This document shows positions 55,952 through 57,093 of a DNA stretch of 64,000 nucleotides, one piece after another. The stretch is taken from sequence record PV806175.1. One strand, written 5' to 3'. Position 1 is the stretch's first letter, and the number at the start of each line of letters is the position of its first letter. This DNA comes from Escherichia phage CCU7. The notes below the pieces were generated by a model. The model did not search any database. It was given only the letters and a program-made list of their open reading frames with translations, and was not told where the DNA came from. A program made the translations under genes and the position numbers.

Positions 55952-56314
55952 ATGAAAGCATATCAAATTCTTGAAGGCACACACAAAGGCACTATTTATT
56001 TTGAAGACGGTACTCAAGCCCGGATTATTGCCTCTAAGACTTTTAAAGAAGACGCTATTGTAGACCCGGAAATTTTCTACGGTTTGAATGCCCGTGAAAT
56101 TGAAATTGAACATCAACCTAAAGTTAAAATTGAAGGTGGTCAACACCTGAACGTTAATGTTCTGCGTCGTGAAACTCTGGAAGATGCAGTTAAGCATCCG
56201 GAAAAATATCCGCAGCTGACCATCCGTGTATCCGGTTATGCAGTTCGCTTTAACTCTCTGACTCCGGAACAGCAGCGTGACGTTATCGCTCGTACCTTTA
56301 CTGAGAGTCTATAA
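55952..56314 (+). CDS. autonomous glycyl-radical cofactor protein (GrcA/YfiD-like)
   Basis: C-terminal glycine-radical signature RVSGYAVRF within [59 protein letters not shown]; this part has host-like codon usage (CTG/CGT/CCG rich). Confidence 0.8.
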
Positions 56315-56538
56315 TGGCTAAATTGATTATAGAAGGGTCTGAAGATGTTTTAAAATGTTTTGCCGCCTGGTTTAGTTGCTCAGGCGAGCAATCATTCATT
56401 GAAGCATTTAGAATGGGTGATATTACTGGAAACTATCCGGCAACTGATATCACTGTACGTGGATATGGTATTAATGAGCCTATCCAATTGGTCGAATATG
56501 ACCTTGCCACCGATGAGGAAATTCCTTATGTCGATTGA
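56314..56538 (+). CDS. hypothetical protein (74 aa)
   Basis: ATGA-type coupling to upstream gene. Confidence 0.45.
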   Translation: MAKLIIEGSEDVLKCFAAWFSCSGEQSFIEAFRMGDITGNYPATDITVRGYGINEPIQLVEYDLATDEEIPYVD

Positions 56539-56794
56539 AGATATTAAAGGCTACAAGCCACATACCGACGATAAAATCGGTAAAGTGAACGCTATTAAAG
56601 ATGCAGAAGTCCGTCTTGGATTGTTGTTTGATGCTCTGATTGAAGAAGCATATATCTTGAAAGAAAATGAAACAGAGCAACAAACCAAAGAAGATATGGA
56701 TGCAGTACAGGCTCTTAAGTATGCTAAGCAACATCTAAAAGAAGCCAGCATGTGGGCCTGTCGTGCAGTATTTCGACCTGAGGAAAAATACTAA
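56528..56794 (+). CDS. hypothetical small protein (88 aa)
   Basis: Internal ATG of track ORF 56360; T4 vs.3-vs.8 position between denV and regB. Confidence 0.45.
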
Positions 56795-57093
56795 TGGCTC
56801 AAATCCTATCAGGCTTTGGAACTCATTATGAAGCATCTAGACGCATAACTGAAAGCAATCCTTTTGGCCTTGTTCCTAAGCACAAGAAAATTCAAAGCCT
56901 TGATGACTTTGAGAACCGCCTATGGGCCCTCTTTAATGAGTACAAGGCATATCTGAAAGAAGACGCTGACGATTGTCTTGAAGAAGATGAGATTGCGTAT
57001 TACGAACAACGCCTTGAACAGCTCAAGAACTTCCATCAGGTTCGTGACGAAGTATCTAAAGCAGTTAAAAAGTTAATTCCTTTCAAAGAGTAG
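56794..57093 (+). CDS. hypothetical small protein (99 aa)
   Basis: ORF coupled to upstream gene; immediately upstream of regB promoter. Confidence 0.5.

Follow-up and report, generated by a model that had tools for sequence, protein, structure and literature searches.

Gene content and layout of the denV-regB interval

The stretch of Escherichia phage CCU7 DNA analyzed here (sequence record PV806175.1), which we refer to as the window and which spans 64,000 nucleotides, carries three tightly packed + strand open reading frames (ORFs) between denV and regB, at 56314-56538, 56528-56794, and 56794-57093. An earlier note, made from the sequence alone, had listed ORFs of 74, 88, and 99 aa starting at 56314, 56528, and 56794, and all three were found at these positions and on this strand. 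These genes, the two landmarks that frame them, and one further gene considered below are as follows:

56314-56538, + strand: vs.5, 74 aa, a conserved T4-like phage protein without an assigned function
56528-56794, + strand: vs.4 = acb2, 88 aa, a predicted cyclic-dinucleotide sponge (anti-CBASS protein 2), by orthology
56794-57093, + strand: vs.3 = tadIV-1 (long form), 99 aa, a predicted N7-cADPR sponge (anti type IV Thoeris), by orthology
53929-54354, + strand: denV, upstream landmark (Pfam Pyr_excise, 3.8e-14; PHROG 1183 at 3.9e-62)
57150-57608, + strand: regB, downstream landmark (Pfam REGB_T4, 5.6e-69)
41446-41901: Acb1 gene (Pfam Acb1, 7.4e-59)

The three ORFs represent only the last part of the denV-regB interval, since this interval also contains two internal-protein-like genes along with vs.8, vs.7, and vs.6. 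The complete block reads e, internal protein, denV, two internal proteins, vs.8, vs.7, vs.6, vs.5, vs.4, vs.3, regB, vs.1, vs, tk.4. From denV to regB, the gene order is the same as in T4, for which the earlier note had correctly stated that vs.3-vs.8 lie between regB and denV (T4 order: denV, vs.8 to vs.3, regB). Positions 53900-57650 (3.75 kb) are 99.7-99.8% identical to Shigella phage Shf125875 and Escherichia phage CAU_ECP01, and on the basis of sequence CCU7 is assigned to Mosigvirus (RB69-like), within the Tevenvirinae. The Shf125875 annotation describes the three ORFs as hypothetical proteins resembling RB69 vs.5, RB69 vs.4, and phage SP18 vs.3, respectively. The alternative of a substituted, different small effector at this position does not apply, as the genes of the locus are one-to-one orthologs of those of T4 and RB69.

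The vs.4 frame was opened by the ORF tool at an upstream TTG (56360), and we took the ATG at 56528 as the real start because the first 12 residues read from it match the conserved N-terminus of T4 Vs.4. Shine-Dalgarno-like motifs were identified 6-10 nt upstream of the start of each gene, namely GAGAG at 56303-56307 for vs.5, GAGG at 56515-56518 for vs.4, and GAGG at 56780-56783 for vs.3. The vs.6 stop and the vs.5 start share a TAATG, as do the vs.4 stop and the vs.3 start, while vs.5 runs 11 nt into vs.4. The packing of vs.5, vs.4, and vs.3 resembles that of a coupled cassette. Matches in tblastn were obtained in 1,237 phage records for Vs.4, 987 for Vs.5, and 722 for Vs.3, which indicates that these ORFs are real genes and not chance ORFs. 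A sigma-70 promoter scan yielded 17 sites vs 18.6 in shuffled sequence, i.e., no excess, and terminator-like sites (6 vs 3.7 in shuffled sequence) were not clearly enriched; no Rfam family was found across 53000-59000.

Assignment of the 88-aa protein to Acb2

Sequence comparisons consistently linked the 88-aa protein to T4 Vs.4, whose identity as the Acb2 sponge the earlier note had rightly given (PMC10097602; PMC10449767). The protein matched PDB 7UQ2, i.e., T4 Vs.4 with cGAMP, with an E of 9.8e-31, Pfam PF24729 (Acb2_Tad1_hairpin) at 65.7 bits and 4.4e-18 (gathering cut-off 27), and PHROG 717 at 3.6e-28, the latter being the group used by Jenson et al. to delimit Vs.4 homologs (PMC10097602). 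Alignment to T4 Vs.4/Acb2 and structure prediction had both been proposed in the earlier note, and both favored this protein: it is 66% identical to T4 Vs.4, and its AlphaFold2 (AF2) model, computed as a single chain from a 50-sequence alignment, is a two-helix hairpin (helices 14-42 and 50-81, pLDDT 86.2). When this model was searched with Foldseek, 7UQ2 chains ranked first (E 9e-7 to 6e-6, TM 0.69-0.71), and the Acb2 of Pseudomonas phage PaMx33 (8H2X, 8H2J; Huiting et al. 2023; PMC10312549) was matched at TM 0.62-0.64. The PaMx33 protein shares the same Pfam family and a similar fold, although the Foldseek-aligned identity between the two is only about 14-18%. The model also displays the Acb2 protomer fold, namely a short N-terminal segment followed by two long antiparallel helices. 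T4 Vs.4/Acb2 (7UQ2; Jenson et al. 2023, PMC10097602) likewise lies between vs.5 and vs.3, upstream of regB, is also 88 aa long, and has the same hairpin fold. By sequence and predicted structure, the product of 56528-56794 is an ortholog of T4 Vs.4/Acb2.

Conserved pocket and variable hairpin tip of Vs.4

We then compared the residues known to matter in characterized Acb2 proteins. T4 Vs.4 forms a hexamer holding three cGAMP molecules, in which Y8 and F82 stack on the bases while H11, K23, and R79 make polar contacts (PMC10097602). All five are identical in CCU7 Vs.4 (Y9, H12, K24, R79, and F82). The tyrosine and the lysine of this T4 pocket correspond to Y11 and K26 of PaMx33 Acb2 (PMC10312549), both essential for cGAMP binding and equivalent to CCU7 Y9 and K24. 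The residues of the T4 hexamer interface, L29, F33, A66, A73, and A77 (PMC10097602), are likewise all identical (L30, F34, A66, A73, and A77 in CCU7). Among the sites recovered in a T4 Vs.4 loss-of-function screen, T12, S74, and L60 (L60F) (PMC10097602), the first two are identical in CCU7 (T13 and S74) and the third is V60. In an alignment of 50 diverse family members, the ligand residues, together with the interface and screen residues A66, S74, and A77, are invariant.

By orthology, Vs.4 would assemble as a hexamer in which three pockets each lie between a pair of protomers. There, the purines of a bound 3',3'-cGAMP or related cyclic dinucleotide would be stacked by Y9 and F82, with H12, K24, and R79 holding the phosphates and ribose of the ligand. 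Such sequestration would keep the signal from CBASS effectors, and Vs.4 should also expose the phage to detection by Panoptes-type decoy systems.

The center of the protein differs from T4. Residues 38-65 (the central 28), which make up the hairpin tip and line a would-be trinucleotide pocket, are almost wholly different between the two proteins and include a one-residue indel. Across the 50 sequences, mean column entropy is 2.5 bits at residues 38-65, compared with 0.6 for the N-terminal and 0.3 for the C-terminal part, and this region also carries indels. The divergence of residues 38-65 is a property of the whole family, not of CCU7.

This variability bears on which ligands Vs.4 may bind. 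In PaMx33 Acb2, which also binds cyclic trinucleotides, R67 and T74 are the residues involved, and T4, which does not bind cA3, has D61 and T68 at these positions (PMC10312549). CCU7 has Q61 and Q68 there, and thus lacks the Arg/Thr pair of the trinucleotide-binding subgroup. Given these two glutamines, dinucleotide-only binding is expected, and Vs.4, like T4 Acb2, probably does not bind cyclic trinucleotides. Cao et al. proposed five T4 Acb2 residues as clashing with cA3, namely Y37, A57, L60, D61, and T64 (PMC10312549), and all five are changed in CCU7 (I38, M57, V60, Q61, and K64). Because these five residues and almost all of residues 38-65 differ from T4, the ligand range of Vs.4 outside of the dinucleotide pocket is not predictable.

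One could envision that the Mosigvirus Vs.4 allele, while belonging to the Acb2 family, has shifted or widened its range of ligands, binding cyclic trinucleotides or, e.g., 3'cADPR besides or instead of cGAMP. The hypervariability of the tip and the loss of all five proposed cA3-blocking residues would be consistent with such a shift, and Acb2 homologs with other specificities do exist, some of which bind 3'cADPR instead of cGAMP through extra beta-strands and other residues (PMC12393519). However, the dinucleotide pocket is fully conserved, which makes a loss of cGAMP binding unlikely, and the arginine that is essential for cA3 in PaMx33 (R67) is replaced by Q61, with T74 replaced by Q68. The 3'cADPR-binding Acb2_43 relies on extra terminal beta-strands and different residues (PMC12393519), and the phage also has Acb1, which covers trinucleotides. 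Overall, we regard a shifted or widened range as very unlikely. No biochemical tests of this Vs.4 allele were found in the literature searched.

Acb1, encoded by gene 57B in T4, is also an anti-CBASS protein, and CCU7, like T4, encodes both Acb1 and Acb2. Unlike the sponge Acb2, Acb1 is a cyclic-oligonucleotide phosphodiesterase that degrades the signal, with an unrelated fold and a separate locus.

The 99-aa protein and the TadIV-1 sponge family

The 99-aa protein, Vs.3, belongs to a different family. It matched PDB 9WIW, the UPEC07 TadIV-1, over its full length (residues 1-99, E 1.6e-35), and is 59% identical to T4 Vs.3 (E 1e-37), with an N-terminal loop that is 8 residues longer in CCU7. 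The UPEC07 homolog of T4 Vs.3 was renamed TadIV-1 by Chen et al. (Nat Commun 2026, PMC13243611), who demonstrated the function of both the T4 and the UPEC07 protein. TadIV-1 consists of two helices and forms a dimer; by sequestering N7-cADPR, which serves as the type IV Thoeris signal, it blocks the caspase-like effector (PMC13243611). This activity requires a flexible N-terminal region: short homologs of ~70 aa were inactive, while all long ones tested (>80 aa) were active (PMC13243611). CCU7 Vs.3, found at the same locus position as its T4 counterpart, is one of the long forms that possess the flexible loop at the N-terminus, and its N-terminal sequence (MAQILSGFG..., with a conserved pattern MAQ..SGFG) aligns with UPEC07 residues 1-32.

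Mutagenesis implicated UPEC07 residues S16, R18, R19, S21, S23, N24, K34, and E58, as well as K57, K60, and H83 (PMC13243611). Eight of these 11 are kept in CCU7 Vs.3, with R18, R19, S23, N24, K34, K57, E58, and H83 corresponding to R16, R17, S21, N22, K32, K55, E56, and H81. Of the other three, S21 is conservatively replaced by T19 and K60 is replaced by A58, while the alignment has a gap at S16. All of the core residues common with T4 (RR, K, and E) are kept. By sequence, the product of 56794-57093 is a long-form ortholog of TadIV-1, a sponge family distinct from Acb2.

By orthology, Vs.3 would act as a dimer, in which the N-terminal loop (R16, R17, T19, S21, and N22), together with helix 1 K32 and E56, would sequester the N7-cADPR that the type IV Thoeris TIR protein produces. 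Removal of N7-cADPR would in turn prevent activation of the caspase-like effector. The description of this pocket in TadIV-1 itself comes from models and mutagenesis, not from a ligand-bound structure (PMC13243611).

Several GenBank records name the Vs.3 protein "endoribonuclease RegB domain-containing", and this label presumably stems from the neighboring regB. The molecule name "Endoribonuclease" given to 9WIW is probably a carried-over mis-annotation. An NCBIfam T6SS_TagK match to Vs.3 was dismissed as noise (16 bits vs a cut-off of 200).

Gene identity, orthology, fold, and residue conservation were established in this analysis. A further alternative is that these ORFs are decayed or non-functional copies. 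Such forms occur among related phages: T2 Vs.4 is N-terminally truncated and matches residues 10-88 only, and some phages carry short or diverged Vs.3 forms (residues 25-97 only), of which the short ones were inactive (PMC13243611). However, CCU7 Vs.4 and Vs.3 are both full-length, with intact N-termini and functional residues, and their exact sequences recur on 172 and 217 public contigs, respectively (68 for Vs.5). We thus consider decay to be extremely improbable.

The oligomeric state, ligand binding, and anti-defence activity of the CCU7 proteins are those that we infer from their orthologs. Of the earlier proposal that any of the three ORFs could be the Acb2 counterpart, the part concerning 56528-56794 stands, this gene encoding the Acb2 ortholog by sequence and fold, while the 74-aa and 99-aa ORFs instead correspond to Vs.5 and Vs.3/TadIV-1. 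Two of the three ORFs that the earlier note listed without a function, Vs.4 (Acb2) and Vs.3 (TadIV-1), belong to described families. This segment is very probably the vs.5-vs.4-vs.3 part of a conserved T-even early block, with two of the three genes encoding small helical-hairpin immune-messenger sponges.

Vs.5, a conserved neighbor of the two sponge genes

For the first gene of this segment, no match to Vs.5 was found in Pfam, in NCBIfam, or in a PDB sequence search, and a word-indexed homolog search returned nothing informative. Its PHROG is a group without known function. When 1.8 billion representatives were scanned exhaustively with HMMER, only small phage orthologs and repeat artefacts were recovered. 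Four large HMMER matches (P0129, P0131, P0133, and P0134) were rejected as translated tandem, cytochrome c, and FG-GAP-like repeats, which had matched because of a short WF.N.G.Q.F-like word in common with Vs.5. A frameshift in vs.5 of the T4 reference was initially taken as a sign of dispensability, and this argument was withdrawn since a newer T4 assembly has an intact gene.

Vs.5 may conceivably be a third anti-defence component of the cassette, acting by binding another signal, by inhibiting some other defence system, or by modulating Vs.4. The gene is packed against both vs.6 and vs.4 (with the 11-nt overlap to the latter) and lies directly upstream of two proven sponge gene families, and the protein is kept full-length in about 980 T4-like phage records. 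Its predicted fold is compact and confident, and its aromatic and polar residues include a set of invariant positions (W19, F20, S21, S23, G24, E25, Q26, Y51, and Y62); an invariant signature reads WFS-x-SGEQ / GYG..EPI..VEY. With 14 D/E vs 4 K/R, it is also small and very acidic, like many phage inhibitors. However, no sequence or fold likeness to any known sponge or inhibitor was found, and purified T4 Vs.4 and Vs.3 work alone (PMC10097602; PMC13243611). Within the T4 fragment tested by Chen et al., only vs.3 inhibited type IV Thoeris (PMC13243611), and adjacency is weak evidence in the densely packed T4 early region. An anti-defence role for Vs.5 in any of these forms is therefore unlikely. 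The same doubtful standing applies to the view of Vs.5 as a third, so far unrecognised anti-defence protein with a confident novel fold adjoining acb2 and tadIV-1; if true, vs.5-vs.4-vs.3 would represent a three-gene counter-immunity cassette. On a smaller scale, and with the same low likelihood, variation at the tip of the Vs.4 hairpin might tune its ligand range or help the phage to escape sponge-sensing systems such as Panoptes.

Implications for annotation and host range

Both sponge families, along with their structures, mechanisms, and distribution across Straboviridae, are already published, and the assignments made here involve no new biology. Public databases partly reflect this: UniRef names the exact Vs.4 sequence "Acb2/Tad1 hairpin domain-containing protein", RB69 Vs.4 and CCU7 Vs.4 fall in a common 90% UniRef cluster, and at least one GenBank phage record already labels the neighboring gene "anti-CBASS protein 2". 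For this locus, the gain is one of annotation, as two specific functions, experimentally grounded in orthologs, replace "hypothetical protein". The leads of interest are the role of Vs.5 and the ligand spectrum of the RB69-type Vs.4 allele. Finally, the presence of Acb2 and TadIV-1 side by side, with Acb1 elsewhere, predicts how this phage would behave across hosts carrying CBASS, Thoeris IV, or Panoptes.

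Allelic variation in the sponge genes

Across T4-like phages, variation in the Vs.4/Acb2 family was concentrated at the hairpin tip; this segment is hypervariable, with insertions or deletions as long as 10 residues, and the two ends of the protein are nearly invariant. In the window, this variable segment lies at:

56639-56722, within vs.4: Vs.4 hairpin-tip segment, residues 38-65

When Vs.4 proteins from the phage collection were compared with the window allele, their identities fell into two groups, with 134 records at ≥95% and nearly all others at ≤72%. This split suggests that Vs.4 exists as discrete alleles that have been exchanged or have diversified at the hairpin-tip segment. 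In T2 (NC_054931, 583-843), the match to the window Vs.4 begins only at residue 10, so the T2 protein lacks the N-terminal tyrosine of the dinucleotide pocket. The Panoptes paper likewise remarks that the binding site is missing in T2, which evades Panoptes, a decoy-type defence system that senses sponge proteins.

The adjoining vs.3 locus (56794-57093), encoding the TadIV-1 ortholog, was also polymorphic among T4-like phages, and only 74 records reached ≥95% identity to the window allele, compared with the 134 for vs.4. Some phages encode a diverged Vs.3 form with 35–43% identity, for which only residues 25-97 are covered, and which is thus devoid of the N-terminal loop required for TadIV-1 activity. 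Vs.3 is mis-named as an endoribonuclease or RegB-domain protein in several databases and in PDB entry 9WIW.

Outside this interval, the window also includes a gene for a further counter-defence protein, next to the dNMP kinase gene:

41446-41901, +: Acb1, anti-CBASS phosphodiesterase, 151 aa (Pfam PF23474, 7.4e-59)

Like T4, the window phage thus carries both Acb1 and Acb2, along with TadIV-1.

Vs.5 and other genes around denV

In the T4 reference (NC_000866, 2846-3058), Vs.5 is annotated as a 58-aa protein that agrees with the window Vs.5 (56314-56538) over residues 1-18 only; the remaining Vs.5 (residues 14-72, 66% identical) is found in a different frame, ending in the overlap with the vs.4 start. 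Because the full 72-aa Vs.5 is encoded in a single frame in both the newer T4 assembly OZ035787 and T2, the NC_000866 frameshift must be a reference-specific error or a strain mutation. The Vs.5 annotated in T2, at 46 aa, is too short.

The denV–regB neighbourhood includes the following additional genes:

53586-53882, +: small internal-head-protein-like gene
54361-54621, +: small internal-head-protein-like gene
54685-54987, +: small internal-head-protein-like gene
55101-55640, +: vs.8, 179 aa
55952-56314, +: vs.6, 120 aa, GrcA/YfiD-like autonomous glycyl-radical cofactor (match to Pfam Gly_radical at 2e-18)

The C-terminus of Vs.6 is nearly identical to the PFL glycyl-radical motif RVSGYAV, and vs.6 is located directly upstream of vs.5, with which it shares a TAATG. 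Vs.8, shorter in the window than in T4 (179 vs 219 aa), displays a Walker-A-like motif (GGRQSGKS) and a weak match to a terminase large-subunit ATPase PHROG (1.1e-5), which together suggest a small P-loop NTPase. The three internal-head-protein-like products share an N-terminal leader, MK(T/M)Y(S/Q)EF..E, similar to the T4 capsid-targeting sequence. The arrangement of their genes around denV is unlike that of T4, where the stretch from e to denV contains both ipII and ipIII.

A predicted hairpin upstream of regB

Between the sponge genes and regB lies a short non-coding region:

57094-57149: vs.3–regB intergenic region

This region includes a T4-early-type promoter (GTTTAC ... TACTAT) that aligns with the T4 regB promoter (GTTTAC ... 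TATAAT), as well as an inverted repeat (~57099-57112 / 57130-57143) predicted to form a hairpin (−23 kcal/mol, z −3.8) in which the regB Shine-Dalgarno GGAG is paired. An inverted repeat also occurs at the equivalent place in T4, with different stem bases, which suggests that the structure is conserved. On transcripts that read through from the vs genes, such a hairpin would shield regB from translation, and transcripts initiated at the regB promoter, located inside the hairpin, would escape this masking.
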